NCBI GenBank assembly: GCA_030390025.1
Contig: CM059432.1
Coordinates: 79,052,001-79,116,000, forward strand
DNA: 64,000 nt
From: Squalus acanthias
Lineage: Eukaryota
Direction: 5' to 3'
In this document: piece by piece, positions 14,780-61,789 of the stretch
Numbering within the stretch: position 1 is the first letter of the stretch
Layout of the letters: each line of letters begins with the position of its first letter
Notes under the pieces: generated by a model
What the model saw: the letters and a program-made list of their open reading frames with translations, nothing else
What the model was told of the DNA's origin: nothing
The model's database searches: none
Position numbers and translations under genes: made by a program

Positions 14780-15885
14780 ATGCATCAAGGCAGCATTTGA
14801 CCGAGTGTGGCATCAAGGAGCCCTAGTAAAACTGAAGTCAATGGGAATCGGGGGGAAAAACTCTCCATTGGCTGAAGTCATACCTAGCACAAAGGAAGAT
14901 GGTTGTGGTTGTTGGAGGTCAATCACCCAGGACAGGAGTTCCTCAGGGCAGTGTCCTAGGCCCAACCATCTTCAGCTGCTTCATCAATGACCTTCCCTCC
15001 AAAATAAGGTCAGAAATGGGGATGTTTGCTGATGACTGCAGAGTGGTCAGTGCCATTCGCATCTCCTCAGATAATGAAGCAGTCCATGCCCGCTTGCAAC
15101 AAGACCCGGACGACATTCAGGCTTGGGCTGATAAGTGGCAGGTAACATTCACGCCACAGAAGTGCCAGGCAATGACCATCTCCAACAAGAGAGAGTCTAA
15201 CCACCGCCCCTTGACATTCAACAGCATTACCATCGCCAAATCCCCCACCATCAACATCCTGGGGGTAACCATTGACCAGAAACTTAACTGGACCAGCCAC
15301 ATAAATACTGTGGCAACAAGAGCAGGTCAGAGGCTAGGTATTCTGCAGCGAGTGTCTCACCTCCTGACTCCCCAAAGCCTTTCCACCATCTACAAGGCAC
15401 AAGTAAGGAGTGTGATGGAATACTCTCCACTTGCCTGGGTGAGTGCAGCTCCAACAACACTCAAGAAGCTCGATACCATCCAGGACAAAGCAGCTCGCTT
15501 GATTGGCACTCCCTCCACCACTGGCGTTCCGTGGCTGCAGTGTGCACCATCTACAAGATGCACTGCAGCAACTCGCCAAGGCTTCTTCAGCAGCACCTCC
15601 CAAACCCACCACCTCTACCGCCTAGAAGGACAAGGGCAGCAGGCGCATGGGAACACCACCACCTCCAAGTTCCCCTCCATGTCACACACCATCCTGACTT
15701 AGAAGTATATCGCCATTCCTTCATCGTCGCTGGGTCAAAATCCTGGTACTCCCTCCCTAACAGCATTGTGGGAGTACCTTCAACACACAGACTGCAGCGG
15801 TTCAAGAAGGTGGTTCACCACCACCTTCTCAAGGGCAATTAGGGATGGGCAATAAATGCTGGCCTTGCCAGCTACGCCCACAAAA
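14780..15885 (+). mobile_element. CR1/L2-group LINE, third family ('family C'), 3' RT fragment
   Basis: KAAFDRVWHQG...GVPQGSVLGPTIFSCFINDL...MFADD...YKAQVRSVMEYS, with a 3' end gggcaataaatgctggccttgcc. Four more copies occur in the window. Confidence 0.88.
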
Positions 15886-19960: not shown

Positions 19961-20672
19961 ATAACCACCTCTCCTTGACGTTCAATGGCATTACCATCAT
20001 CGAATTCTCCACCATTAAGATCCTGGGGGTCACCATTGACCAGGAACTTAACTGGGCCAGCCACATAAATACTGTGGCTACAAGAGCAGGTCAGAGGCTG
20101 GGAATTCTGCAGTGAGTGACTCACCTCCTGACTCCCTAAAGCCTACATCTACAAGGCACAAGTCAGGAGTGTGATGGAATACTTTCCATTTGCCTGGATG
20201 AGTGCAGCTCCAACAACACTCAAGAAGCTCGACACCATCTAGGACAAAGCAGCCCACTTGATTGGCACCCCATCCACTACCTACACAACCGGCACACCGT
20301 GGCTGCAGTATGTACCATCAATAAGATGCACTGCAGCAACTCGCCAAGGCTTCTTCGACAGCACCTCCCAAACCCACGACCTCTACCACCTAGAAGGACA
20401 AGGGCAGCAGGCGCATGGGAACACCACCATCTCCAAGTTCCCCTCCAAGTCTCACACCATCCTGGCTTGGAAATATATCGCCATTCCTTCATCGTCGCTG
20501 GGTTAAAATCCTGGAACTCCCTACCTAACAGCACTGTGGAAGTACCTTCACCACACGGACTGCAGCGGTTCAAGAAGGCGGCTCACCACCACCTTCTCAA
20601 GGGAAATTAGGGATGGGCAATAAATGCTGGCCTTGCCAGCAATGCCCACAACCTGTGAATGAATAATTTAAA
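19961..20672 (+). mobile_element. Family C LINE 3' fragment
   Basis: Closely similar to 15197-15885 (LTFNGITI...DQELNWASHINTVATRAGQRLG; tail gtgaatgaataa). Confidence 0.88.
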
Positions 20673-21244
20673 AAAATTAGAAGCAAGCAAAAAGCTGTAG
20701 AAAAAGTTATAAAAGTGCTGAAAATAAATGTTTTATAGTGTGACAAAGAGCTGCAATACCCAGGCATGAGAGAAGTAGGCATGACAAAATTATAATACAA
20801 TAGTGTGTGAATTGGACAGTGTGTTATACACAAAACATTTAATATATTATAGATATACATAAGCACCTATCTATTGTTCTCTATTTTTATGTCAAATTAG
20901 GAAAGGGGAATTATTGCCAGATTTGCAGATTGGCCAAAATGCAGAAATCCATTTTACTCCAGCAAAAGACATTCCTGGAACCAGATTCTTAATATTGGCA
21001 ACTATGTTGGTGATCAATCTCTGTAGCTTATGTCATATCTTCTGTGGAGGAGCGTGGGAGGCCATCTACCTATTCATCTCAATCAGTTTATACAATACTA
21101 GATGCCTTCCTATCAAGGTGTTGTGAGCAATGTCAAACTTGTACGTCCGTTAACCAATCCATTGGCCTTTTGGCCTTGTATCCTGGGCAGTGAAGCTCAG
21201 ATACCAACCTTTCTGGTAGTTCAGGTAAACATAAAAGAGACCAT

Positions 21245-21678
21245 AATACAAAAGCAAAATACTGCATTAGGATGTAATAGGTTTCAAGCAAATACAGAGG
21301 CAGGGAATTGAAATTGTTGAACAGATCATAACCTCTGCCCCCATTTTTTTGACAGCTGTTGCTCATGATTCTGATATTCCCATTTCCACCTCCTCTAGAC
21401 CCATCTTTTGTTTCTTTATGTGTCTCATTACCATCTCCTTTCGCCTTGCACCAACATCTCGTCATTTAATCTCTCCTTCCTTCCATCTATCAGACTTTCC
21501 CTTTTGTTCTTTCCTCCCACCCCCTTTCTCTGCCTCTGTACTTGCTTGAAACCTATTACATCTCTAACCTTTTGCAGCTCTGACAAAAGATCATCGACCT
21601 GAAACGTTACCTCTGTTTCTCTCTCCACAGATGCTCCCTGACCTGTTGAGTATTTCCAGCATTTTCTGTTTTTATTAT
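21245..21678 (+). mobile_element. Penelope terminal-repeat insertion with a short inverted end
   Basis: An inverted stub aatacaaaagcaaaatactgc is followed by the terminal repeat containing ctgacaaaagatcatcgacctgaaacgtt. The flanking direct repeat aagagaccat lies at 21235-21244 and 21679-21688. Confidence 0.8.
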
Positions 21679-21814
21679 AAGAGACCATGACACTTGTCAA
21701 GAGAATAGGGAATTTTCCTAGTGTCCTGGTCAACATGAGAACAGTGACTGTTCTCCTACAACCCAATCACCCTTCCATACTTCCACAACCATACCTCAAG
21801 CCCCTGCCCCACAA

Positions 21815-28063: not shown

Positions 28064-28983
28064 TCAAGAGTGATCCATAGGTTCAATTGTCCCCTCTATT
28101 TCCTGACTATCCATTTCTTCAAGATCTTCATTCAAAAGGTTTCCATCGTGTGCGTTGCTTGATGGTATGGATGGATGTGGTAACAGTTCCACACCAACAG
28201 CTGTTGTTTCCATGCCCAAATTCTCATTGTCACCTGCTTGTGGAGTGACTGACAGTGGCTCCAGTGCTTCAGTTTGAAGGCTTTCAGTTCTCATTATTAA
28301 TTGGACTGAGGAAGTTGTAGAGTGTACTTTTGTTTCAGGGACATCACTAGGTATTGATTGTTCTGCATTTTGATCCCTCAAGTGTTTATCCATGGAGGCT
28401 TGAATGGAAGATACCATCTCTTGCAACTTCTTACGTTGTATTTCAATTAAAGTGGAGTCAAGTTGCCTACCGTCTCGCATTGTTACAAAACCAGGCGCCA
28501 TTCGTATTAGCTGACTATCCCCACTGCTGGACTTGGGTGGGGAAGCCCCTTGCTTGGGACTAGACTTGCCAACACCATAATTAAGATCTGTTCCCGAAGA
28601 ACTACCAATGCTTTGTTTCCTAGGCACCTGCAATTCCCTGCTATGCCTCTGCTCCAACTGTGGGCTACTTGAAGCAGTCCCAAGGGAATGGCCTTTTCCC
28701 TGGAAAGCTGTGACATTTGGCATTTGTTCAGATTTTTTTCGCACCACTCCTCCACTGCCAAGTTTCATCCCTCCATGCGAAGAGGGACTTCCTTCCCTAC
28801 TTCTTGACCCTCCCTCAGACCGTAACTGACTTAAGGCCTCTTTGATCAGATTGTCAATGTCAGGACCAATGGTGATGTGCCCTGCTGGATCAATGCACAG
28901 TTCCAGCCTATCGTCTGTTCCATTGTACACAAATGTCTTACCAGGAAGATGGGGAAGAGTGAAGTGCTTGCCATCTGCTAAAC
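28064..28983 (-). CDS. VCPIP1: VCPIP1 exon 3 CDS (C-terminal region to stop)
   Basis: Acceptor tacgcag|GT TTA GCA GAT GGC gives (G)LADGKHFTLPHLPGKTFVYNGTDDRLELC...EEMDSQEIEGTIEPMDHS*. This is 920 nt, making the total CDS 3615 nt = 1204 aa + stop. Confidence 0.97.
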
Positions 28984-29089
28984 CTGCGTATAAGAATGGG
29001 CACCAAGAACAAAATATTAGAATCAGTTGATACAGTTTAAAACAACCTAGTACTTATGATCTCCATTTCAAAAAATTCATTGCATTGTA

Positions 29090-31191: not shown

Positions 31192-31382
31192 GGCCTAGAA
31201 ATTCATCTCGGGCTGTGGCATAAAACGGGCAGTATTGGATCGGATCGGCCGCCCGTTATAAGGAGCGCCTGATATTCAGTTACATTTACTGCAATGGAAC
31301 TGAATATCAGGCGCTCCGTATAACGAGCAGCCAATCAGATGCCACCCATTTTGCGCCACCGCCCGAAACGAACTTCTAGGCC
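31192..31382. mobile_element. Fold-back MITE (GGCC-ended, Harbinger-like)
   Basis: TIRs are ggcctagaaattcatctcgggc and gcccgaaacgaacttctaggcc. The interior is also self-complementary (ggagcgcctgatattcagtt ... aactgaatatcaggcgctcc). No clear TSD. Confidence 0.8.
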
Positions 31383-34445: not shown

Positions 34446-34511
34446 CCAGTTTGGAGTGGCCTACTTCAGGAAGACTGTGGAGGTGGTGCAAAAGAAATGG
34501 CCTGTTTCTGT

Positions 34512-34711
34512 AATAAAAACAGAAAATGCTGGAAATACTCAGCAGGTCAGGCAGCATCTGTAGAGAAAGAAACAAACAGAGTTAACGTTTCAGGTCGACG
34601 ACCCTTCGTTTCTCTCTCTACAGAATCTGCCTGACCTGCTGAGTATTTCCAGCGTTTTCTGTTTTTATTTCAGATTTCCAGCATCCGCAGTATTTTGCTT
34701 TTGTATTTGTG
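34512..34711. mobile_element. Short fold-back Penelope terminal-repeat insertion (family 1)
   Basis: Two inverted copies of the terminal repeat, flanked by the 14-bp direct repeat tggcctgtttctgt at 34498-34511 and 34712-34725. Confidence 0.88.
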
Positions 34712-35441
34712 TGGCCTGTTTCTGTGCTGTGTCAGTTTACAAAAGTGTTGCATCAATGCAATAGACTAAGCTACACTATCTAAAGAAATTAGTTACATTT
34801 ACCTTTTTATTCACCAGCAAACAGGTTAATGATGCTCATCTGGTTGTGTTGTGTCCATTAAAGTAGCAGCAAGCTTTAAACATCCATTTAGATGATTGCT
34901 CAGTTGATAAAGTATTAAATTGGTTATTCCTGAATATATATTTTGATTGCCTAAGTGGCAGCTATAAGGTTCCCCAATAACTCCTGCATGAAAACACCCT
35001 ACTAAACTTCCCTCCAACCATATAATTAAACTATGTTATGATTTTTTCACAGAAGTAGTTAAGAGAACATGAAATTAAATGAGGAAATGGACCATGCAGT
35101 ATTGCTATGCACTGGAGCTCGAACACTCAAAGCCATCAGGTAGAATAGAAATTCAATCTTATACACCTCTCAGTTCCCAATCGGAGTTGATATAAGCAGA
35201 AAACCTCCGTGTGGAGACTGTGGCATTTCCTTGCAGGGTGGAAGCGCAAATAAAATAAATTGGATAGGGGCATTCAGCCAGGTGGTACATCATGTCTCCA
35301 AGCAGCTAGCCAAATGTGGCACTGGTAGAGCAGACAGTTTGGCAGCAGAAGTTCATGTCCAGGCATATTAATGAATACTTACACTTGGAAAAATTATGAG
35401 GATATATAAAGTGACGAAAACTGCAACATGATTCGCCTTAC

Positions 35442-35528: not shown

Positions 35529-36728
35529 CTAAACAATGCAAAAACAAAAGATATATTTATAGTTCCAAGCATCTGATCAATTTTACCACTTAAGGAAAGA
35601 AAATTGTAATAATGACTTATCTCACTATTATCTGATTACAGAATATCTGAATACATTATTGAATGCAACAACCATAATTTCATCCAAAACCAATCTTGCT
35701 TTTAAAAAAAAGTAATTTATATTTTTCATTCTTTGCATTCTCAGTCTTGATCCTATGCATGGCTCTACAAGGTTAGATTGGTAACCCAATCCCAAGCTTC
35801 ATCAAAGTTGCTCTTTAACCAACAACAAGAAACCATGCAAGAATAGTTTGAGTTACTTGTCCTGAGATTTTACCTCAAGATGTGGAAGTGCCTCACTTGA
35901 GCAACTTGGCTAAGACTGCTTCAACAACCTTAAATCAAAATTAAACTGGAAATGTGAGTCATGTTGCTTCTGTCACATTATAACTGAGGCTGTGGACAGG
36001 TGAAAAGAGCCACACCCCAGTAACATAAGAGCCACAAGATGCTAGATAGCCATTCTGACCCATAATAGCTCAATTTTCAATAGTGCAAAATAAATTCACA
36101 TTAGGTTTGTGCACAAAATGCTTTAATTGTGGGTTATAAGCTATCATAAATAATGTGTTTCTTTTGAAAATAACCAAAGCAATATAATTGTAACCTAATG
36201 TTTAACTAATATCTTTAGTTGTCAGTTCCACGGGAACAGTGTCTTCTGGTACTAAACTCCAGTGCCATTGTTTATATGCGAGCCTCGACGGTACTCGATT
36301 GCTGGATGCCACAGACGTGCATCATCAATTTTGTACCTTTACAATTTGTATTCCCGTTTCAGGCTTCAGTACATTTTGTTCTTTCCCTCCAATACAAGTG
36401 AAGCAATGTTGGCTATACTTATTACTTAATTTACAAAGTCTATGTAACTACTTGTTTTCACACAGGCTTAAAAGCAGGGGTGTTCTTATTGGCTTTTTGA
36501 GTGCTGTGTCAGCTTTTGCTTGTTTTCTAGATTCGCATGTATGCATCTATTCAAGGGATAGGTTAGGTGAGCCACTAAGGTGAGTATTATACTTTCAAAG
36601 CAATCCAAAGGCAATATTGAGATGATTGGTAAAAGTTCTCTCGAATTCATATTGACTAGCAAAGACTGACAACACCATAAAATAAATCCCTTTAATAAAG
36701 TGCGTGAAGAGGAATTTAAATCAAACTG

Positions 36729-38359
36729 AAAATGCTGGAACAACTCAGCAGGTCAGGCAGCATCTGTGGAGAGAGAAACAGAGTTAACGTTTCAAGTCGA
36801 TGACCTTTTGTCAGAACTGGAAAAAATTAGAGATGTAACAGATTTTAAGCAAGTGCAGAGGCAGGGAAAGGGGGGAGGGGAGGAGGGGAGGAAAAAACAA
36901 AAGGGAAGGTCTGTGATAGGGTGGAAGGCAGGAAAGATTAAATGACAAAAGGGGTGATGTTGCAAGGCAAAAGGAGATGGTAATGGGACAAGTAAAGAGA
37001 AATCTAGAGGAGGTGTAAATGGGAATAGCAGAATCATCAACAGTTGCTGTCTGAAAAAATGGGGGTAGAGGTTATGATCTGAAATTGCTGAACTCAATGT
37101 TGAGTCCGGAAGGTTGCCTAATCGAAAGAGGAGGTGCTGTTCCTCGAGTTTACATTGAGCTTCATTGGAACAGTGAAGGAGGCCAAGGACGAAGAGGTCA
37201 GAGTGGGAGTGGAGCGGAGAATTAAAGTGACAGACGGAAGCACGGGGTTACACTCGCAGACTGAATGGAATTGTTCCGCAAAGCGGGCAGCCAATCTGCG
37301 TTTGGTCTCCCCAATGAAGAGGAGACCGCATCGTGAGCAGCGAATACAGTATACTAAATTGCAAGAAGTACAAGTAAATCGCTGTTTCACCTGGAAGGAG
37401 TGTTTGGGGCCCTGGACAGTGGGAAGGGAGGGTGTAAAAGGGCAGGTGTTGGAAGGGGAGAGGGTGTTGGGGGCGATTGAGGAGTGGAGCAGGGTGTCAC
37501 GGAGGGAGCGGTCCCTTCAGAATGCTGAAAAGGGGATGTGAGGGGAAGATGTGTTTGGTGGTAGGATCGCGCTGGAGGTGGCGGAAATGGTGGAGGATGA
37601 TACGTTGAATGTGGAGGCTGGTGGGGTGGAAGGTGAGGACTAGGGGAACCCTATCATGATTCTGGGAGGGAGGGGAAGGGGTGAGAGCAGAAATGCGAGA
37701 AATGGAACAGACACAGTTGAGCACCCTGTCAACCACGGTGGAGGGGAATCCTCAGTTGAGGAAAAAAGACATATCAGAAGCACTGTTATGGAATGTGGCA
37801 TCATCAGAGCAGATGCGACGGAGACGGAGAAATTGGGAGAATGGAATAGAGTCCTTACAGGAAGCAGGGTGGGAGGAAGTGTAGTCAAGATACTGGTGGG
37901 AGTCAGTGGGCTTATAGTAGATGTTTGTCGATAGCCTACCCCCAAGAAATGAAGACAGAGAAGTCGAGGAAGGGAAGGGAAGAATCGGAGATGGACCATG
38001 TGAAGGTGAGGGAAGGGTGGAAATTGGAAACAAAGTTGATGAAATTTTCCATACCAGTGCTTCTTTACTTGTCCCATTACCATCTCTTTTCGACTTGCAC
38101 ATTATGCCTTTTGTCATTTAATCTCTCCTGCCTTCCAAACTATCACAGACCTTCCCCATCGTTCTTTCCTCCCTTTCCCTGCCTCTGTACTTGCTTAAAC
38201 CTGCTAAATCTCTCATTTTTTCCAGTTTTGATTAAAGGTCATCGACCTGAAACGTTAACTCTGTTTCTCTCTCCACAAATGCAGCCTGACCTGCTGAGTA
38301 TTTCCAGCATTTTCAGTTTTTATTTCAAATTTCCAGCACCCGCAGTATTTTGCTTTTGT
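36729..38359 (-). mobile_element. 5'-truncated Penelope-like element with an inverted terminal-repeat copy
   Basis: Minus-strand RT C-terminus (YKPTDSHQYLDYTSSHP) and GIY-YIG (NLVYCIRCSRCGLLFIGETKRRL). The terminal repeat at 36729-37040 has an inverted copy at ~38052-38359. The 15-bp TSD atttaaatcaaactg lies at 36714-36728 and 38360-38374. Confidence 0.93.
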
Positions 38360-38514
38360 ATTTAAATCAAACTGTTCAGCTTAACTGAAACAGAACAGTC
38401 TCGTTTTAGCATATTGCTGTTGGTTCCTTTTGTACTTTAAACAGTAACCCTAACTCTAATCAGTAAGTTGGTCTCACTTGCCCCACAAAATGGTTTCTTC
38501 ACAAATGTACATAG

Positions 38515-43781: not shown

Positions 43782-44018
43782 GTCAGCTGTGGCTCAGTGG
43801 TAGCACTCTCACCTGAGTCAGAAGGTTGTGGGTTCAAGTTCCACTCCAGGGACTTCAGCACAAATTCTAGGCTGATACTCCAGTGCAGTACTGAAGGAGT
43901 GCTGCACTGTCAAAAGTGTTGTCTTTCGGATGAGACGTTAAACCAAGGTCTCGTCTGCCCTCTCATGTGGACATTACAGATCCCATGGCACTACTTTGAA
44001 GAAAAGCAGGGAGTTCTC
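43782..44018 (+). mobile_element. Deu-type tRNA-derived SINE, 3'-truncated
   Basis: A-box TGGCTCAGTGG, B-box GGTTCAAGTTCC, and central gtctttcggatgagacgttaaacc...gatcccatggcact. Confidence 0.82.
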
Positions 44019-44597
44019 CTTGCATTTATATAGTGCCTTTAATGTAGTAAAACGTCTCAAGGCGCTTCACAGGAGCATTATCAAACAAAATTTGTAACTG
44101 GACAACATAGGGAGATATTAGGACACATAAACAAAAGCTTAGTGAAAGTAGGAGGTTTTAAGGAGCATCGTAAAGGAGGAGAGAGAGGTAGCGAGGTGGA
44201 GAGGTTTAGGGAGAGAATTCCAGAGCTTGTGGCCTTGGCAGTTGAAGGCACGGCCACCAATGGTGGAGCGAAGGAAATCAGGGATGCTCAAGAGGCCAGA
44301 ATTGGAGGAGTGCAAGAGTTCTCGGAAGGTTGTAAGGTAGGAGGAGGTTACAGAGATAGGATGGGGTGAGGCCATAGAGGGATTTGAAAACAAGGATGAG
44401 AATTTTTTTTAAATCGAGGCGTTGCCAGACTGGGAGCCAGCGTAGGTCAGCGAGGACAAGTGTGAATGGTGAATGGGACTTGGTGCGAGTTAGGATACGG
44501 CAGCAGAGTTTTAGATGAGCTCAAGTTTATGAAGGGTGGAAGATGGGAGGCCAGCCAGGAGAGCGTTGGAATATTCAAGTCTAGAGGTAACAAAAAC
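44019..44597 (-). mobile_element. L2-like LINE 3' fragment
   Basis: Homologous to 38520-39060. Confidence 0.88.
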
Positions 44598-45868
44598 GTT
44601 CAGACAGAAATTTCAGATGATGTAAATAATGTATCATTCCAGAAGACACTATCTGATGCAAGACCAGAGTCAGGTTATTAAATATAATGGGGATTACATT
44701 TTTATTTTTCCATGGACAAAATATTTTAGCTTCATGCTAAATTACCTTTTTCAAATGAAGGTTTTTACTTCCTCTGCTGCTAGTGTAGAAAATGTTGGAG
44801 ATTGCAAAATTCTATGAAATTTTAATAAATACTAGGTGGCTGATTTCATATAATAAAATTCTTTGTTGTATAAGAAAAGACACAAAGTAATGTGCCTGGA
44901 GTAATAATGTACCATTACAGTGTAGCTATTACATGAAATGATACAAGATAACTTAGAATTTAAACTTTTCAGTATTAGCCATTTTTAAAACACAAATAGA
45001 TATTCAGAAATGTTCACGCATTTTGCTAATATAAATTCAGTAATAAAGCAAAAACAAGACCAATAATATTATTATTCAGGAAGCATTGGGACTTTTGATA
45101 GTGAAACAAAAAACCCGGAGGAAAAACTAATAACTTTGTGTACATATTTTCAAAAGGTCTCTTTTACTGCAACATTTCTACAAATTTTTGCTGTGCTATA
45201 GAAAAGTTAAATTTTACATATTCCCAATTTTCAGTACCTCTGCCATGATGTCTCCATCCCTCTCTAGTTACGTTGCAGTGACATGGACGGCTAAAATATG
45301 TCCATGTTAATGATTTCATTACCCACAAGGCTGTGCTGAATATTAAGTTGCATTAGTCACAACTTGAAAACAAATTATTTTTAAATTGTAAATTTTATAT
45401 GTAAATTATTAAATTGTTTTATTATTAATTTTCGTTTCCAAACGGTGGCTATTGCAACTTAATCAGCTGAACACGCACACATAAAGGGAATTGGCTGACT
45501 TAAGAAATTAGCTGGTCATTAATTTTCTTTGCAAAAAGGCAGATAAAAATTACAAAAGATAACATAAGCATGGCAAAGGAATGCTGCTCTGCATTTTTAA
45601 AAATAAATATACTTTGCGATACACGACTCCTTAGAGCTAGCACAGGCACAATGGGCCAAATGGACACCTTCTATGCTGTATGATTCTATGAAATCAATCA
45701 ATTTTCTCACACTGTTTTCAGCCAATATCCTTCTTCATTCTGGTAAGTATATACAATTAAAAATAACACCTACGACAAAACAATTATAAAGGAAACAAAC
45801 ACACAAAGAAATTACAACATTCTGAAAAAAAAGCTTACCCATAAAATTGGTCAATTAACATTAGAAAT

Positions 45869-46048
45869 GATGTGGAGATGCCGGTGTTGGACTGGGGTGG
45901 ACAAATGTGAGAAGTCGCACAACACCAGGTTATAGTCCAACAGCTTTATTTGAAATCACAAGCTTTCGGAGCGGTGCTCCTTCGACCTGACGAAGGAGCA
46001 CCGCTCCGAAAGCTTGTGATTTCAAATAAAGCTGTTGGACTATAACCT
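45869..46048. mobile_element. Short fold-back element (second, probably Penelope-type terminal repeat family) with an intact minimal hammerhead core
   Basis: Perfect 58-bp inverted arms at 45927-45984 and 45991-46048 with a 6-nt loop. The 14-bp flanking direct repeat taacattagaaatg lies at 45856-45869 and 46048-46061. Confidence 0.85.
45985..46018 (+). ncRNA. Candidate minimal type I hammerhead ribozyme motif
   Basis: CTGACGA (45987-45993) - A - stem II GGAGC/acc/GCTCC - GAAA (46008-46011) - GC-TT, with a palindromic AAGCTT stem III. Stem I is short because the 5' side is truncated. Confidence 0.65.
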
Positions 46049-46084
46049 AACATTAGAAATGCCTGCAAGAAATTTTCCCTACTT

Positions 46085-46676
46085 TTTTTTTTAATATTCG
46101 CTCCTGGGATGTGGGTGTCGCAGGCAAGGCCAGCATTTATTGCCCATCCCTAATTGCCCTCGAGAAGGTGGTGGTGAGCCACCTTCTTGAACCGCTGCAG
46201 TCCGTGTGGTGAAGGTACTCCCAACAGTGCTGTTAGGTAGGGAGTTCCAGGATTTTGACCCAGCGACGATGAAGGATCGGCGATATATTTCCAAGTCAGG
46301 ATGGTGTGTGACTTGGAGGGGAACTTGGAGGTGGTGGTGTTCCCATGCGCCTGCTGCCCTTGTCCTTCCAAGTGGTAGAGGTCGCGGGTTTGGGAGGTGC
46401 TGCCAAAGAAGCCTTGGCGATTTGCTGCAGTGCATCTTGTAGATGGCACACACTGCAGCCATGGTACGACGGTGGTGGAGGGAGTGAATGTTTAAGGTGG
46501 TGGATGGGGTGCCAATCAAGCGGGCTGCTTTGTCTTGGATGGTATTGAGCTTCTTGAGTGTTGTTGGAGCTGCACTCATCTAGGCAAGTGGAGAGTACTC
46601 CATCACACTCCTGACTTGTGTCTTGTAGATGGTGGAAAGGCTTTGGGAAGTCAGGAGGTGAGGCACTCGCCGCAGA
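46085..46676 (-). mobile_element. Family C LINE 3' fragment
   Basis: MSAAPTTLKKLNTIQDKAARLIG...AAVCAIYKMHCS on the minus strand, with an A-rich tail at ~46084-46092. Confidence 0.88.
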
Positions 46677-47607
46677 CCTGCTATTGTTGCCTGACCTTCA
46701 GTCCAGGGCCCGGGCTTGAATTTGGAATTGCACCTGGGCCTCGGGTGTTGGGGATTTGCAGTTGCTGCGGACAAATGCTATGTTTATGAGAATCATGGAA
46801 GTTGTAGTTTTCATCTGCTTCTGTGCAACTACAATACCTAGAGTGTTCCTTAGCAAGCAGGCAGAAAATTTACAAACAACTATTAGATGCACATAGTGGA
46901 AAAAAACATAATAAAAGACTATTTTTTCAATGTTTTATTTTGTTCAAACTATTAAATATATGATGTTGTTTGGGAGGGTACTGATGTTGGGATCAGTATT
47001 AGAGGGCATGATTGTTAGCTGCTTTGATGCTGACCTCAGATAGTTGCAGGTCAGTCAGTCAGTCAGACCTGGGCCAAGTCAAATGACTACTTGTTCACAG
47101 TCCTGGTCATTGGAGACTCGACAATGTGGTGCTACACTGACAACAACTTCAGGAAGAACTGCAAATCCACTATGAGCGAGAAAAAAAACTTTTATAATCG
47201 TATAAATAACTGAGAAAAGGAAGAAGATTTTAGTGAAGGAGAGAAGAATGAACAGATAATGTATTTGCCTCTTCAAATAAATACTGCAAATCCAACATGA
47301 GAGGTAGAGGAAAAAGTATTTTATGTAAATAACAGAAAAAAGGTTTTGGGGAGGGAAGAGCAAAGTTATTTACATCTTAAGCAAGCTTTGCAAAGTGATA
47401 GGTATAATAATTGAACTACTATTTACCCATATCAGACCTGTATTTTTCAGTATTAAGGTGCGATGTTTCACCTTGTGTCAGTCATGGGATATGGGCAAAC
47501 CACTGTCTTGTTTAGGCTCCAATGGAACGAAGGTGCATATCAGAAACAGCACTCCAGATCCCAGCCTAATCATGAGCAACAGCATGGGAGACCTACCAGT
47601 AATTAAT

Positions 47608-48316
47608 GGCCCAGATATTCCGATCCCTACGGGTGGGTACGTGCTGTGTACCCACCCGTAGGAACATTGGAGATGCCGGTTTCAGGCATGCACAGCGCAT
47701 GCGCTGAAAACCGGCATTTCCGATCTGTCAAGAATGGTCTTGACAAATCCTCCGGCTGCCCTGGAGAAGGGCCTCTGCGGGCGGATAGTTCCGCTTTTTG
47801 GAGACCCTCCGCCCGCAGAAAACCCTTACAATTCTTACGCCTGGTAAAAGCAGGCGTAAGGCCTGCTTTTACCAGGATAAGAGTTGAAAAAAAGTAAAAA
47901 AAAAATTTTTGCTGATTTATCATTTAAAAATACTTTTTAAAAAGTTTATTTTTAGCCCCGTAAAAAACTTTATTTTTTTCAAAAAATTAAATTTTTGTTT
48001 AAAATACTTAATTTATTGTAATTTCAAGTCATTTTAAAAATGTGATTCTTTAAAACATTTATTTAAAGTTTTACTATGTTTTTGGGGTGATCTCCATTCA
48101 TATATTTGACTGTGATTGGCTCCCCATGGCCCACGTGATCCCAGGGACGCTGCAAAATACATGCGCCCCTGGGATACGTCGGCCCTGCACACTTCAAGTT
48201 TGGAGAGGCCCAGGAGCGGAAGCGTGCGCGTCCCGGGAGCCCTCAGGTAAGGGCGTAGATATTTCCAGATCGCAGGCCTCCGCCCGCGGGAGGCCTGCGA
48301 TCGGAAAATTCGGGCC
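47608..48316. mobile_element. Non-autonomous PIF/Harbinger-superfamily element (709 bp)
   Basis: TIRs are ggcccagatattccgatc and gatcggaaaattcgggcc. A 3-bp AAT flanks both sides (47605-47607, 48317-48319). The arms are GC-rich and palindromic around an AT-rich core. Confidence 0.82.
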
Positions 48317-49104: not shown

Positions 49105-52100
49105 CCTGCGCTTCACAACAATTTTCTCACTGAGATATCTTCTCTGCTTTCCTCCCTCTGCACCGAGTGACTTCTCATCCTTGGTGATTTCAACCTCCAC
49201 CTCAACTCCTCTTGTTCTCTCTCCTCTGAGTTCACTGCACTCCTTTTCTCCCTTAATCTCTCCCTCCATATAAACTCTCCTTACCCTTATACACGGCCAC
49301 CCCCTCGATCTTGTCATCTCATGTGGCCTCGCTACCCCCACCGTAACTATCACTGATATGGCAATTTTTGATCATTTCCTTATATTGCTCTCTACCAATA
49401 TTCCCCTTTCCCCTCCCAACCCCACTTCTTTCTGTGTCCACCCCTGGAAAAAACTTTCCCTAAAGTCCGTTATTACTGCACTTTCAAATTCCCAACTATC
49501 TAGCCTTTGGCCTACAATTCTTCATGATATTTCTGCAGTTCCTGATTTGCTAAATCATACCCTCTCCACCACCTTTGATGCCCTTGACCCCAATAAAACC
49601 ATTACACGCTCTTACCCTAGTTGTTCCCTCGGTATACCCCTCATCTCCCCTCCCTTAAGTCCAAGGGACGCAGACTTGAACGTCTTTGGCGGACAACTGG
49701 TTTGACCATCCATCACCAGATATGGCTGGATCATAAAAAGCATTATCGGGTCCTGCTCTCCATCGCTAATACTGCCCATTATTCTAAGATCATCTTCTCC
49801 ACCACTAACCGTCTTCTCAAACCATCCTCCCCTGCCTCAACCTCCCTCACCTCCAACAATAAATGCGAGGAGCTCAAGGACTTCTTTATTAAAAAGATCG
49901 AGAACATCCGTTCAACTGCCTCTGCCACTTCCCTCCCTTTCCCTAGCCCACCAGGCCTAACTTCCTTTTAGTTTCCCCCCTGCCCCAAGCCTGAATTTGC
50001 ACATTTCTCTAGTTTCTCTCCTATCTCCCCTCAGGCCCTCTCAAAGCTCATCTTGTCAATGAGACCCACCTCCTGCTCTCTCGATCCTATTCCTACTAAA
50101 TTGCTGACCACCCAACTTCTCTTCCTAGCTCTTATTAGCTGATATTGTTAACAGTACTCTTTCCTCTGGTACTGTCCCCCTCTCCTTTAAATCTGCCGTC
50201 ATCACCCCTCTCCTCAAAAAACCAACCCTTGACGCCTCGGTCTTTGCAAACGATCGTACCATTTCGAACCTCCCTTTCCTCTCCAAAGTCCTTGAACGTG
50301 TTGTCGTCTCCTAAATCCGTGCCCATCTTTCCCGGAACTCCATGTTTGAATCCCTCCAATCAAGTTTCCACACCCACCACAGTACCGAAAAGGCTCTTAC
50401 CAAGGTCACAAATAATATCCTAATTGACTGCGACAAAGGTAAACTACCCCCCCCTCATCCTTCTCGACCTGTCTGCAGTCTTTGACACAGTTGACCACAA
50501 AATTCTACTCCAACACCTCTCCACCGTCATCCAGCTGGCTGGGACAGCACTCGTCTGGTTCCATTCCTATCTTTCCAGCATAGCCATAAAATCACCTGCA
50601 ATGGCTTCTCTTCCTGCTCCCACACCATCACCTCTGGTGTTCCCCATGGATTTATCCTTGGTCCCCTCCTATTTCTCATCTACATGCTGCCCCTGGTGAC
50701 ATCATCCAGCAACACAAGGTGAATTTTCACATGTACACGGATGATACCCAGCTCTACCTCTCCTCCACCTCTCTTGAACACTCCACTGTTTCTATATTGT
50801 CAGACTTTTTTTTAATTCATTCATGGGATGTGGGCATCGCAGGCAAGGCCAGCATTTATTGCCCTTGAGAAGGTGGTGGTGAGCCGCCTTCCTGAACCGC
50901 TGCAGTCCATGTGGTGAAGGTACTCCCACAGTGCTGTTAGGAAGGGAGTTCCAGGATTTTGACCCAACGACGATGAAGGAATGGCGATATATTTCCAAGT
51001 CAGGATGGTGTGTGACTTGGACGAGAACTTGGAGGTGACAGTGTTCCCATGCGCCTGCTGCCCTTGTCCTTCTAGGTGGTAGAGATCGCGGGTTTGGGAG
51101 GTGCTGTTGAAGAAGCCTTGGCGAGTTGCTGCAGTGCATCTTGTAGATGGTACACACTGCAGCCACGGAACGCCGGTGGTGGAGGGAGTGAATGTTTAAA
51201 GTGGTGGATGGGGTGCCAATCAAGTGGGCTGCCTTGTCATGGATGGTGTTGAGCTTCTTGAGTGTTGTTGGAGCTGCACTCATCCAGGCAAGTGGAGAGT
51301 ATTCCATCACACTCCTTACTTGTGCCTTGTAGATGATAGAAAGGCTTTGGGGAGTCAGGAGGTGAGACACTCGCCGCAGAATACCCAGCCTTTGACCTGC
51401 TCTTGTAGCCACAGTATTTATGTGGCTGGTCCAGTTAAGTTTCCGGTCAATGGTGACCCACAGGATGTTGATGGTGGAGGATTCGGCGATGGTAATGCCG
51501 TTGAATGTCAAGGGGCAGTGGTTAGACTCTCTCTTGTTGGAAATAGTCGTTGCCTGGCACTTGTGTGGCACGAATGTTACTTGCCACTTATCAGCCCAAG
51601 CCTGAATGTCATCCAGGTCTTGCTGCATGTGGGCATGGACTGCTTCATTTTCTGAATACTTGCGAATGGAACTGAACACTATGCAATCATCAGCAAACAT
51701 CCCCACTTTTCACCTCATGATGGAGTGAACATTATTGATGAAGCAGCTGAAGATTTCTGGGCCTAGGACACTGCTCTGAGGAACTCCTGCAGCGATGTCC
51801 TCGGGCTGAGATGATTGGCCTCCAACAACCATCTGCCTTTGTGCTAGGTATGAGTCCAGGCAGTGGAGAGTTTTCCTCCTGATTTCCATTGACTTCAATT
51901 TTACTAGGGCTCCTTGATGCCACACTCCGTCAAATGCTGCCTTGATTCAAGGACAGTCACTCTCAGCTCACCTCTGGAATTCAGCTCTTTTGTCCATGTT
52001 TGGATCAAGGCTGCAATGAGGTCTGGAGCTGAGTGGTCCTGGCGGAACCCAAACTGAACATCGGTGAGCAGATTATTAGTGAGCAAGTGGTGCTTGATAG

Positions 52101-56569: not shown

Positions 56570-57472
56570 ATTTTTTTTTAATTCATTCGTGGGATCTGGG
56601 CGTCGCTGGCAACGCCAGCATTTATTGCCCATCCCTAGTTGCCCTTGAGAAGGTGGTGGTGAGCTGCATTCTTGAACCGCTGCAGTCCATGTGGTGAAGG
56701 TACTCCCACAGTGCTGTTAGGGAGGGAGTTCCAGGATTTTGACCCAGCGACGATGAAGGAACGGCGATATACTTCCAAGTCAGGATGGTGTGTGACTTGG
56801 AGGGGAACTTGGAGATGGTGGTGTTCCCATGCGCCTGCTGCCCTTGTCCTTCTAGGTGGAAGAGGTCGCGGGTTTGGGAGGTGCTGCCGAAGAAGCCTTG
56901 GCGAGTTGCTGCAGTGCATCTTGTAGATGGTACACACTGCAGCTACGGTACGCCAGTGGTGGAGGGAGTGAATGTTTAAGGTAGTCGATGGGGTGCCAAT
57001 CAAGCGGGCTGCTTTGTCCTGGATGGTGTTGAGTTTCCGGAGTGTTGTTGGAGCTGCACTCATCCAGGCAAGTGGAGAGTATTCCATCACACTCCTTACT
57101 TGTGCCTTGTAGATGGTGGAAAGGCTTTGGGGAGTCAGGTGGTGAGTCACTCGCTGCAGAATATCTAGCCTCTGACCTGCTCTTGTTGCCACAGTATTTA
57201 CGTGGCTGGTCCAGTTAAGTTTCTGGTCAATGGTGACCCCCAGGATGTTGATGGTGGGGGATTTGGCGATGGTAATGCCGTTGAATGTCAAAGGGCAGTG
57301 GTTAGACTCTCGCTTGTTGGAGATAGTCTTTGCCTGGCACTAATGTTACCTGCCACTTATCAGCCCAAGCCTGAATGTCGTCCAGGTCTTGTTGCATGTG
57401 GGCATGGACTGCTTCATTATCTGAGGAGTTGCGAATGGCACTGAACACTGTGCAGTCATCGGCGAACATCCC
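56570..57472 (-). mobile_element. Family C LINE 3' fragment
   Basis: 218-aa ORF TFNGITIAKSPTINILGVTIDQKLNW...HHHLLKGN, with tail gaatgaattaaaaaaaa. Confidence 0.9.
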
Positions 57473-59054
57473 TATTTAGACAGCATTTCTACTCCGGACC
57501 ACTATCCATATACCTGCTGGAACTGCACATGTATAGAAAAGGTGAGAACCAAGAATGGTCTCAACTGAGATGGTCTGTGTGGTTAAATAGCCCAGTAATA
57601 CAAACACATAGCTGGCTGGGGAACTACTTGGGAAACTGCCGTTCCCTGTAGAACAGAATGTAGCCACCTTAATAGACAGAGAAGTAATGGCAGAAACTGT
57701 TGTTGGGAGCAGAAGAAAATACAACTCCAGTATTACCAGGCTAAAAACATTAATTATAATGTGCCAGGCCATTGATATTCAATTTTCACAGAAAAAACAG
57801 AATTCTAGAATATGGTGTACAAAATATGGGTAAATATTCCAGATACTAATGCAATAATACTTGTTCAGTCACTATAAACCCTAATAATATTCCTAGATTT
57901 AGTGGCACTGTAATAATACAGAAGTTTGAACTTTGGAACATGGCCTATACAAAACTGTAGAGGTTCAAGCCTTCAGCTTACGGGTGTGGCATGTAAAACC
58001 CAATCAGTTTTCGAACAGGCTCTTCAACACTCCACTAATGTTATTCAGCTCTAAATATAGTATTTACAAAGCATGCTAATGACATCTAGTGGCAGGAAGT
58101 CACTAAATCAGTTTATTTTAAAAGTTAAACGCATCTCAATAAATCAAAAATCAATTTTTATTCAATTACTAAAGTTGTACCCCACTGCTTACACAAAATT
58201 AATTTTACCCCAAAAGCTACCCACTGATCAGCATTATAATTTCGACAAAGAAAGAATTTTTAAAAATCTTCAAAAGAAACAAGGTCCACTTACATTAATC
58301 ATGACTCCTGAAAATTTAGATGATTGGATGTACTCATTATCAAACGATGGTAATATTTGTTAATCCATATACAGAAATGTATTTTTGCTAATCACATTTG
58401 AATTTATGTGATATGTGTAACAATCAAACACAGACAGCATAAACGTATTAAGCTCTAGAACATAAAAGTTAATATATCTCTTGTCTTGTCAACACACATC
58501 TAGTGTCAATATTTTTCATAAGACCAAATTGTTACAGTACCATGATGCAGTCTATTCTACTGTCCCAATGCTTTTCACATCACATAGCCATTAGATCAAA
58601 CAACAGCTGGGTGGAGTGACTTGTGGGCTTCAACACATCATGGTACTGATTACATCAACTGCTCTAGCTTCACTCTTGCTGCTTATGACATCATCAGAAC
58701 CCCCCCACCACCTCTCACACACACGCATTGTGTTGCAGCCTTGCAGCACAGTCTATGCCAACTCTTAAAATTAATGTGGATTGTAAATGCACCAGTACCT
58801 GTTTCAGGATATTGGTATCGTAAAGCAAAGGGACCGAATGAGGCAATCATGAAATGTTAACCTTCCATTATCTTTCGCTTACAGGTGTTGATTAAACTAG
58901 TACACATTTACAGCATTTTCTGCTTTTACTTCAGATTTCCACCTTTAGGTTTTTTTTGTTCTTTTTATACCTACTAGTTGTGTGATGCTATCATAATAAT
59001 ATGCCTAGTTAAATGAACTTTAATGAACAAAAATAAGATAACGTAACTTCTCAC

Positions 59055-61662
59055 CCATTAAGGTTGCTAGAAGGCAGAGGGAAGACATTTCAAGATCAAT
59101 ATGGTCTTGCATATCCTTAACAGAAGCGCTACCAGATGCTTCAGGTTCTTCAGTTTTCCAGGAATGAGCTGCAGATGTTGAAGCAGCAGGCACAGGTTCC
59201 TTGCTGTCCTTCAGAATCTCCACAGAAACGCGATCACCATGCTGCAGGGGCAAAACCTCGTTCTCCCGTCCCACTTTAGGAGGATGCAGTTCCTTTGGCG
59301 GAAAGCCATACCGTATGCATTGCAAACGTGGAGGAAGGTTAAATTCTTTAGCTATGCTTTCTTGAAATTCAGAAAATGTTACAGATGCTTGAAGAGTCAG
59401 TGTTGCCTGTCGCCCATCACTAGTGGTTACTCTAATCTTTTTTTCCTTGGTAGCTGATGGGGAATAAGGGGACTTAGTGGGAGTGGCTGGGGCAGATGAT
59501 GAGCCATCTTTAACAATTCCAGAAGAAGATGGTTGGGCTGGTCCCTTCTGATCCTGTCGTAATTGGTCAGTTTTCCGCTTTTGCACAATAGCTGCATGGT
59601 CAGTAATATTCTGCTGAATACCTCGTTCAGTTTTACTCATGTTCAGTTCTTCTTTATGCAGAGTCTTTGATTTCTGACCCATTAAAATAATTTTGGTAGG
59701 TAAATGTGGCTCTGATATTGGCTCATCTTGCAAATCACCAACTCTACGACTATGTGCGCCTTCAACAGTGACTGGAGTATATTCATCAGGATTCTTTTTG
59801 GCTGTATGATGTAATATGGTGTTAACAACTTTCTGAATCAAGATTTCACTTCCAAATTCACCAGGAAAATGCTTGGTGACAAGCTTCATAGCAACATCAT
59901 AAACATTGCTGTTTAGAGCCACTTCACTTTCATATTGAAACCAATAAACAGTTTCTCGCACCACCCTTCCATTCCATTCCAAAGTTATTGGGAATGCTTC
60001 AGGTAAGTTATCATATTCCTTTCCTTCCCAGTAATGCTTGTAGCCACAGCCACATTTGCCTCCAGCAGATCTGGCATTAGTTCGATCTCCATCTAAGTAC
60101 ACAACAGAACCATCCCCTCTAACATGGCGCATGGAAGTACCATGACACCAGTTGCAGGATGTTAAGTGACTCAAATTATAGTCTGGCACCAGTACATCTT
60201 CTTTAGGGTCATATGAGCACACCAGATGGTGAACAGGAAAACTATAATTTTTGTCTGGCTTCAATTGACCATGGGTGCTTGTAGCCAAGTTGTATAACTT
60301 TCCTCCTGGAGCTAGCCACTCTGTAGGCACATGAAGCTCTGAAAGAGCACCACAAATCAAACATTTCTGCAAACGATTTTCAATGACAGCCTTCTTTGCA
60401 GCTTCAGTAACATCCTCAGGCTGTATTCCAATTACCCCTGTCCTTCTGTATATATATTGATGAACATCTGCTACCAGAGAAGGGTGGATGTCATGCTTCT
60501 TCAAGAAAATTTCTTCCATTGCAGCAACTAGCCTCTGCAAGTACTTGTCCTGCAAACTTCGGTCACCTCCTAATAGACAGCTGTCATCTTCAAACTGTAT
60601 GTACTTCCTAATAAGCTCCTGTGGGACACCCCAGGCTTTAGGCAACAATTTCAAAGGAAGCCTGGGTAAAGGACCCCTTTTTATTCCAACCAAAGGTATA
60701 TAATGGTTGCGCCCTGAACTGCTCCATGCAATGCAAATAGGTTTATTAAGCTGTCCATCCTTTCCCCGACATTTTTCTTCAGGAACTAATCCTGGGAGAA
60801 AGGTAGCTGAATAATCACCACAACTTCTCATTCCACTCAGTGAATCTAGCAAAATGATTGGACGATGTAATACATTGGCCAAACCAAATATATGAATATT
60901 ACGTAGACCCAAAGGTACTCCTTCAGGAGGGACAAACAAAGGGTCACACTCATTAATGATATCCTCCCATTCTGCTGCATCAATGAAGTCATGGAATAAT
61001 GCCTTGTAACGATCCAGGTTTACTTTAAAATGCTGTTTGAGATTTTCACGCAAAGCATGCCAGAAAAGCTCTCTGCCCACCAAAGCCCTGGACACAGCAT
61101 GAACTAAACAATGACCATCACCATCAACATGAACAGGGATTAAACATTCTTGATTACTATTCGCCTTCTTAATCTCCTCCAGAGTATCATGGAGGTATAA
61201 CAGACTCCCTGAGCGATCTTTCCCATAGCCCATAGTCCCAATGTGCTCTGGATCAATAAGGAAAGCTCTGTCACCCAACAAGGCACAATCAAACATTTCC
61301 CCTTGGTTCATCTCTCTCAAGAGTTTGGCCTTCCCAGTTTGTTTATCCATGCCATACCGGGTCAGGATAGGAGACAGCAGCTTACAGTGGTAATTGGACA
61401 GTCCCATTACTTTCACCATTTCCGTGCCCTTTTTGGGGGCCGTGACTCCCAGCAAAGCATTCCTCAGCAGGTTGTGCAGTACCACGTCTGGGTCGGTGAC
61501 TTCCTCTACATTGAGCAGATTTCTTTGTTCATGGCGCTGGCCGCATTCGGTGCATTCTATACTGACTCCATAGGCTGGGAAAAACAGTCGAGCCTGGCAC
61601 TTGGGATCCGGACACGTACCCGATAGAATACGTTTGTCTTTTTTCTTAGATCCTTGCAACAT
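59055..61662 (-). CDS. VCPIP1: VCPIP1 exon 1 CDS: deubiquitinating protein VCIP135 (N-terminal Cys cluster, OTU domain, UBX-like region)
   Basis: The long ORF reads KRILSGTCPDPKCQARLFFPA...VHVDGDGHCLVHAVSRAL (OTU Asp/Cys)...AWSSSGRNHYIPL (OTU His), recognisable as VCPIP1. The ATG at 61662 has A at -3. The donor ATG G|GTGAGA lies at 59055/59054, giving 2608 nt and phase 1. Confidence 0.98.
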
Positions 61663-61789
61663 TGTTTCATTGATTATTCCTGGTTATAGTAAAATCAGTC
61701 TGTATATAATTTTAATCGTTAATGCTCACAGTGTCATGGTCAGTCAATAAGAGAGGCTGTTCCTGTCAGTAATGTTCTTTACTGGGAGG

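Follow-up and report, generated by a model that had tools for sequence, protein, structure and literature searches.

A perfect fold-back insertion with a minimal hammerhead motif in a VCPIP1-like intron of Squalus acanthias, a likely product of an endonuclease-bearing Penelope-like element

The 64-kb window of Squalus acanthias DNA considered here (the whole stretch that was analysed, 64,000 nucleotides, to which all positions refer) contains, between positions 45856 and 46061, a short insertion that folds back on itself as a perfect hairpin and carries a hammerhead motif, and the question raised by this locus is what kind of element left it there and whether its ribozyme can still work. The insertion lies in intron 1 (approximately 35550-59050, minus strand) of a VCPIP1 (VCIP135)-like gene represented by ORFs at 59020-61683 and 28064-29053 and by a small exon near 35.4-35.5 kb; the ORF at 59020-61683 (minus) matches the Pfam family VCIP135_N with an E-value of 1.2e-84, and also OTU. 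The surroundings of the insertion in this intron consist of LINE and Penelope-like element (PLE) debris. The 3' end of an abundant LINE (46085-46676) starts 23 nt to the right of the insertion, and other copies of this LINE are found in the window at 14781-15882, 19962-20676, 50806-51949 and 56571-57477.

The insertion is bounded by a direct repeat, TAACATTAGAAATG, found at 45856-45869 and again at 46048-46061 with 14 identical positions out of 14 and with 178 bp in between (45870-46047); a 14-mer repeat at these flanking offsets would arise by chance with p ~2.5e-6. The arms of the inverted repeat, at 45927-45984 and 45991-46048, are 58 nt long, 100% complementary and separated by a loop of 6 nt, and none of 30 shuffles of the 2-kb region gave a perfect inverted repeat longer than 10 bp. 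A sequence-only reading had described a 14-bp direct repeat around an insert of about 180 bp, with a mismatch-free 58-bp inverted repeat and a 6-nt loop, and all of these coordinates hold. On the left side the inverted repeat is not terminal, being preceded by 57 single-copy nt (45870-45926). The 3' end of the repeat family to which the insertion belongs reaches into the left direct repeat by 3 nt (contig pieces and loose ends start at 45867-45868), and at the right T46048 is likewise shared, so that the target-site duplication measures 10-14 bp.

Between the two copies of this duplication, two pieces of one repeat are placed head-to-head, their 3' ends facing outward. The long arm (45870-45984, minus strand) is a 5'-truncated 3' end of the repeat, running from inside the hammerhead core (CGAAGGAGC, without CUGA) to the fixed 3' end of the family; its 57-nt extension (45870-45926, minus), which is single-copy and found on this arm only, the inverted repeat starting at 45927, holds a likely PLE 'tail' in the sense of PMC11167929 and of the available text of PMC8557442. 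The short arm (45985-46047, plus strand) is an inverted, 5'-truncated copy that carries the hammerhead motif and ends 57-60 nt before the family 3' end. The two arms meet at a junction (45981-45990) formed by a CTTC microhomology and one extra G (G45984), followed by ACCTGA. The identity of the arms and of the two duplication copies suggests a recent insertion event. As a separate observation, host intron RNA read from the minus strand of 45927-46048 is predicted to form a perfect stem of at least 58 bp, which could be a substrate for RNA editing or dicing.

The plus strand of the short arm contains the parts of a minimal type I hammerhead (45987-46019), namely CTGACGA at 45987-45993, an unpaired A (A45994) on the 5' side of stem II, a 5-bp stem II with a 3-nt loop (GGAGC, ACC and GCTCC, 45995-46007), GAAA at 46008-46011, a palindromic 15.2-16.2 segment AAGCTT at 46010-46015 that includes the CTT triplet (46013-46015), with a predicted cut after 46015, and GTGA, the 3' strand of stem I, at 46016-46019. 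The core CUGANGA/GAAA/UH is thus present together with stem II and its G10.1-C11.1 pair, and the earlier assignment to the Penelope-type minimal hammerheads stands. A minimal-hammerhead descriptor gave one match in the 64-kb window (at 45987, plus strand) and a match in 17 of 300 shuffled windows (mean 0.057); by itself the motif is only moderately beyond chance, and it is the context that makes the case. A check with the Rfam hammerhead models, as had been advised, gave no match at gathering score nor at E<=10.

The stem I that had been expected, TCAC/GTGA, is found at the family level, in other copies, in keeping with the 4-5-bp stem I of PLE minimal hammerheads, but in the copy at 45987 this stem is interrupted: CGAC lies opposite GTGA, with 2 contiguous pairs before the junction base G45984. 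The description of the ribozyme core as intact is therefore too strong, since stem I is interrupted and the motif is moreover buried in the hairpin and antisense to the host transcript. When RNA spanning the insert is folded by prediction, the pairing probability of stem II is 0.0 and the hammerhead fold lies 48.6 kcal/mol above the hairpin. The insert has only one hammerhead core, and its minus strand, the one read by the host VCPIP1-like transcript, contains no CUGANGA. Because of the interrupted stem I, the sequestering of the motif by the 58-bp hairpin, the lack of a same-strand dimer partner and the reading of the CUGANGA-free strand in the host pre-mRNA, the ribozyme is probably non-functional in this copy. 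According to the available text of PMC4209133, the single minimal hammerhead (monomer) assayed there did not cleave; cleavage of minimal hammerheads as dimers is treated in the same text and in the available part of the review PMC6765202, and the hammerhead of an Anolis PLE cleaved only when protein was added (PMC11167929).

Sequencing reads show how widespread the inserted repeat is. Contigs from four of the 24 runs listed (X1, X3, X6 and X9; organism A twice, B and D) were placed on 45400-46160 at 87% likeness. Their summed depth over 45868-46049 ranges from 5e4 to 7e6 in all four runs, against 0-58 in the flanking bins (45712-45841 and 46050-46075), and this contrast, in which depth does not stand for copy number, identifies the insert as a piece of a very abundant repeat, present in three organisms. 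In the rest of the window, blastn with the insert gave no match better than E 0.11, and the family is thus distinct from the coding PLE copies found there, as had been proposed. At 45634-45711, about 150 nt to the left of the insertion, there is another short repeat, with a summed depth of up to 2.4e5.

The loose ends of these contigs characterise both ends of the repeat. Those before 45867 are long and mutually discordant (110 contigs in X3, with a median of 255 and an agreement of 0.38; 28 contigs in X6, with a median of 126 and an agreement of 0.43), the pattern expected where a fixed 3' end adjoins many unrelated flanks. The loose ends before 45985, with medians of 11-34, are short and, in X1, X6 and X9, have a common motif ending in CTTC, so that the repeat extends upstream of the hammerhead. 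G45984 is missing from contigs of X1 (14), X3 (11), X6 (2) and X9 (19), and the family therefore reads CTTC-ACCTGA, with a TCAC/GTGA stem I. The evidence on family ends and joints comes from the joints (15 of 232) and loose ends (24 of 1028) that were listed, among which the copies have a fixed 3' end and a variable 5' truncation; in the 15 joints, long arms are cut at 45899-45965, short arms start at 45985-46021 and every joint is different. As inversion junctions vary in this way between copies, the hairpin appears to have formed once and not to multiply as a unit. The joint of an empty allele (45869 to 46062) is absent among the 15 of 232 joints listed, the unique flanks being mostly uncovered even in organism A. 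Summed depth, which is weak evidence, also rises between bins 45868-45893 and 45894-45919 in three of the four runs, which would fit a tail of about 34 nt.

The window contains its own coding PLE family, with which the insertion can be compared; its GIY-YIG match has an E-value of 1.7e-4, just under the curated cut-off, tblastn gives matches to RT+endonuclease proteins, and the family carries a minimal hammerhead of its own. Broken copies of a PLE with RT, a CxxC linker and GIY-YIG occupy 1-2653 and 36713-38363 and are Neptune-like by their linker, as this is described in the available text of PMC8557442. Their hammerhead motifs, with decayed cores, are seen at 2565 (plus), 36814 (minus) and near 38228 (plus). 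The coding family has left a fold-back insertion at 34498-34725, in which arms 91% complementary are separated by a 28-nt asymmetric spacer, only one arm bears a tail, and the duplication of 14 bp is perfect; one of its arms ends at the hammerhead CGAAGG, like the long arm of the studied insert, CUGA is kept by neither arm, and there is no palindromic junction. A similar arrangement is seen at 21232-21688, where a truncated copy of the coding family has on its left a short piece that is inverted and bears a tail, with a duplication of 10-13 bp that contains one mismatch. Since a coding PLE family leaves the same scraps, a separate non-autonomous element is not needed. Imperfect fold-backs without a hammerhead core are also present at 31192-31382 and 47826-47889 (arms 75-88%) and are possibly old elements of DNA-transposon type.

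Pattern and peptide searches of contig collections did not find a link between the family of the insert and an ORF with RT and GIY-YIG. A 22-nt arm pattern had no match in metagenome contigs, pattern scans of the genome-contig and viral-contig collections had none either, and the 30-aa tail frame used as a peptide query gave a single match (E 6.7e-4) to a repetitive protein, which we judged to be due to chance. A degenerate hammerhead pattern retrieved two marine metagenome contigs (L001 and L002) that share 677 nt and have the same stem II and a full TCAC/GTGA stem I, at most about 1 kb from PLE-type RT and GIY-YIG fragments. The RT fragment near their hammerhead matches RVT_1 with an E-value of 1.5e-5, below the cut-off, and the GIY-YIG-type frame is 30% identical to the PLE ORF of the window, its longer homologues including an RT-bearing protein; the hammerhead frame of L002 as a peptide query matched none of 24 candidates. 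As these contigs resemble the insert over no more than 28 nt, of which 24 agree, we regard them as analogues that illustrate the type of motif and not as members of the family; nor does the hammerhead in them lie immediately 3' of the GIY-YIG ORF. L002 also has a 109-nt inverted duplication (1-109 and 983-1091, 94%) between the GIY-YIG-type frame and the hammerhead repeat, another rearranged PLE unit. A test for covariation of the stems had been advised by the sequence-only reading. When the hammerheads of the two families are aligned, seven of nine pairs have changed on either side and pairing holds in 92.6% of cells, compared with 6-39% in slid controls, but the set comprises six motifs and essentially one two-family split (L002 being left out as identical to L001 over 37 nt), so that these figures are descriptive.

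In the available text of PMC3846280 and PMC8557442, the insertion units of endonuclease-positive PLEs (Penelope/Poseidon, Neptune, Nematis) are described with features that the studied insert has as well: 5' truncation, a head-to-head inverted copy, a one-sided extension, a target duplication and a terminal-repeat hammerhead. The insert is an extreme case in that it contains no ORF sequence at all. Its extension of 57-60 nt exceeds the 30-40 nt described for PLE tails in the same texts, and its duplication of 10-14 bp is longer than the 8-10 bp of rotifer copies (available text of PMC3846280). These two lengths weigh against the assignment to PLEs, as do the absence of an Rfam hammerhead match and the failure of the contig-collection searches to tie the family to an RT+GIY-YIG ORF. 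With the PLE minimal hammerheads it has in common the core, the unpaired base between 9 and 10.1, the G10.1-C11.1 pair, the palindromic 15.2-16.2 and, at the family level, a 4-bp stem I; it differs from them in its interrupted stem I and in that only one arm keeps the core, and from those of Schistosoma in having a stem II of 5 bp with a 3-nt loop instead of 7-8 bp. Such minimal hammerheads in pLTRs were described in 2014, in the available text of PMC4209133, as mostly single dispersed or truncated motifs, some of them paired on opposite strands. In Anolis carolinensis, the Poseidon-type PLE PAc (Frangieh et al. 2024, PMC11167929) cleaves both strands of an AT-rich target and extends them, with two internal RT starts that define the tail and a hammerhead just upstream; unlike the insert, PAc is a complete coding element, examined in vitro, and the insert is likened to it by description and not by sequence. 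Among the titles listed from the literature on shark and elasmobranch Penelope elements, none described the family of the insert, which Repbase, Dfam or supplements may list. From these comparisons, the insert behaves like a PLE insertion unit and very probably is one.

The insertion thus consists of two 5'-truncated copies of the end of an abundant repeat, head-to-head within a 10-14-bp duplication, and we consider it highly likely to be the dead-on-arrival product of an endonuclease-bearing PLE with a minimal-hammerhead terminal repeat. What is shown is this anatomy, together with a repeat that is very abundant, ends at one fixed 3' position, extends beyond the 5' side of the hammerhead and has junctions that vary in other copies. 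The view of the insert as a solo terminal-repeat hairpin is upheld. Within this explanation we lean towards twin priming, in which both strands are nicked and two primed cDNAs are joined by microhomology. The GIY-YIG endonuclease would nick the two strands about 14 nt apart, and each 3'-OH would prime reverse transcription on the element RNA, one at its extreme 3' end (with a 3-nt ATG match to the primer) and the other 57-60 nt inside; both cDNAs would stop near the hammerhead, where the 4-nt CTTC/GAAG microhomology would let them join, with one additional base. Such a course agrees with the in vitro cutting and extension of both strands by a PLE protein, starting at two internal sites (PMC11167929). 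According to the available text of PMC8557442, PMC3846280 and PMC8969392, endonuclease-positive PLEs as a rule leave inverted 5'-truncated copies that have a tail on one side. How the inverted structures of PLEs form is named as an open question in PMC11167929 and in the available text of PMC8557442. Fold-back of a single target-primed cDNA does not fit in either of its forms: priming at the tail end would leave TCAGGT in the plus-strand loop, which reads ACCTGA, and priming at the right end would yield a cDNA without the 57-nt extension.

The palindromic shape of the junction can also be read in another way, which we think rather unlikely: an antisense template would fold at the native CTTC-N7-GAAG mini-hairpin, prime itself and be copied to the tail, one arm would lose 57-60 nt, and the product would then integrate. 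The family reads CTTC-ACCTGAC-GAAG exactly at the junction, the minus-strand loop is antisense sequence, and Arkhipova et al. (available text of PMC3846280) ascribe palindromic junctions to self-priming on an antisense template. This course requires an additional trimming step, however, and it does not account well for the 34.5-kb insertion, with its 28-nt asymmetric spacer and no palindromic junction, or for the joints of the family, most of which are asymmetric among the 15 of 232 listed. The source element, for its part, could conceivably be a short non-autonomous family (SINE-like or derived from a retrozyme) that has a defined 5' end of its own and depends on a PLE, acting in trans, for its mobility; the insert would then be a truncated inverted copy of it. 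The failure of the contig-collection searches to find a coding partner, the great abundance of the family in three organisms and the occurrence of pLTR-derived non-LTR retrozymes in vertebrates, including one sampled chondrichthyan (available text of bioRxiv 10.64898/2026.07.22.740005), speak for such a family.

Metazoan non-LTR retrozymes, as covered by the available text of Cervera and De la Pena 2020 (PMC7229834) and of Li et al. (bioRxiv 10.64898/2026.07.22.740005), indeed resemble the insert in being non-coding, in bearing hammerheads and in their relation to PLE terminal repeats, but they are head-to-tail tandems of 150-450-bp units with mostly canonical type I hammerheads on the same strand, whereas the insert is head-to-head, with one minimal core and no tandem. 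No tandem array was found in 44000-48000, and the single core contrasts with the complete hammerheads in at least two consecutive head-to-tail units by which retrozymes are recognised; the minimal PLE type of the hammerhead, the continuation of the repeat upstream as repetitive sequence, the inversion junctions that vary and the similar scraps left by the coding family of the window also make a retrozyme-like or otherwise separate non-autonomous element improbable, contrary to what had been suggested. In favour of a DNA MITE, or of a host gene for a hairpin RNA (pre-miRNA) with a chance hammerhead-like string, one can cite the perfect hairpin (z -26.8), the Rfam miRNA models that match at low E-value and the descriptor match in 17 of 300 shuffled windows. 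The miRNA matches in Rfam all fall far short of the gathering score (71 bits where 249 are required, for example) and are due to generic pairing, snoRNA and group II matches under the gathering threshold were likewise rejected, and a MITE is at odds with the non-terminal left end of the inverted repeat, the one fixed family end, the variable junctions and arm lengths and the duplication of 10-14 bp. This last possibility is hardly credible, and the earlier view of a retro-insertion as opposed to a MITE is upheld.

Within the PLE explanation, the position of the junction raises the further idea that the 5' edge of the hammerhead is a hot spot for breakpoints, where the fold itself or the CTTC-N7-GAAG mini-hairpin around CUGA would stall RT and supply the microhomology for joining; we hold this to be doubtful. 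The studied junction sits on that mini-hairpin, an arm of the 34.5-kb insertion stops at the homologous CGAAGG, and four of the five distinct junctions listed that reach 45985-45986 have three letters or fewer between the arms (from the 12 of 126 rows listed). Against it, 11 of the 15 listed joints start elsewhere (46000-46021), as steep truncation alone would give.

Scraps of this described kind are very numerous, and the value of the present insertion is that of a clean specimen, in which both outer ends and the junction are readable to the base and exclude a simple fold-back of one target-primed cDNA. A genome-wide map of the junctions of such young hairpins could separate twin priming from self-priming. 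For annotation, hairpins of this kind are easily mislabelled as MITEs or pre-miRNAs. If the hot-spot reading is true, the ribozyme motif itself would shape the inverted structures of PLE insertions.
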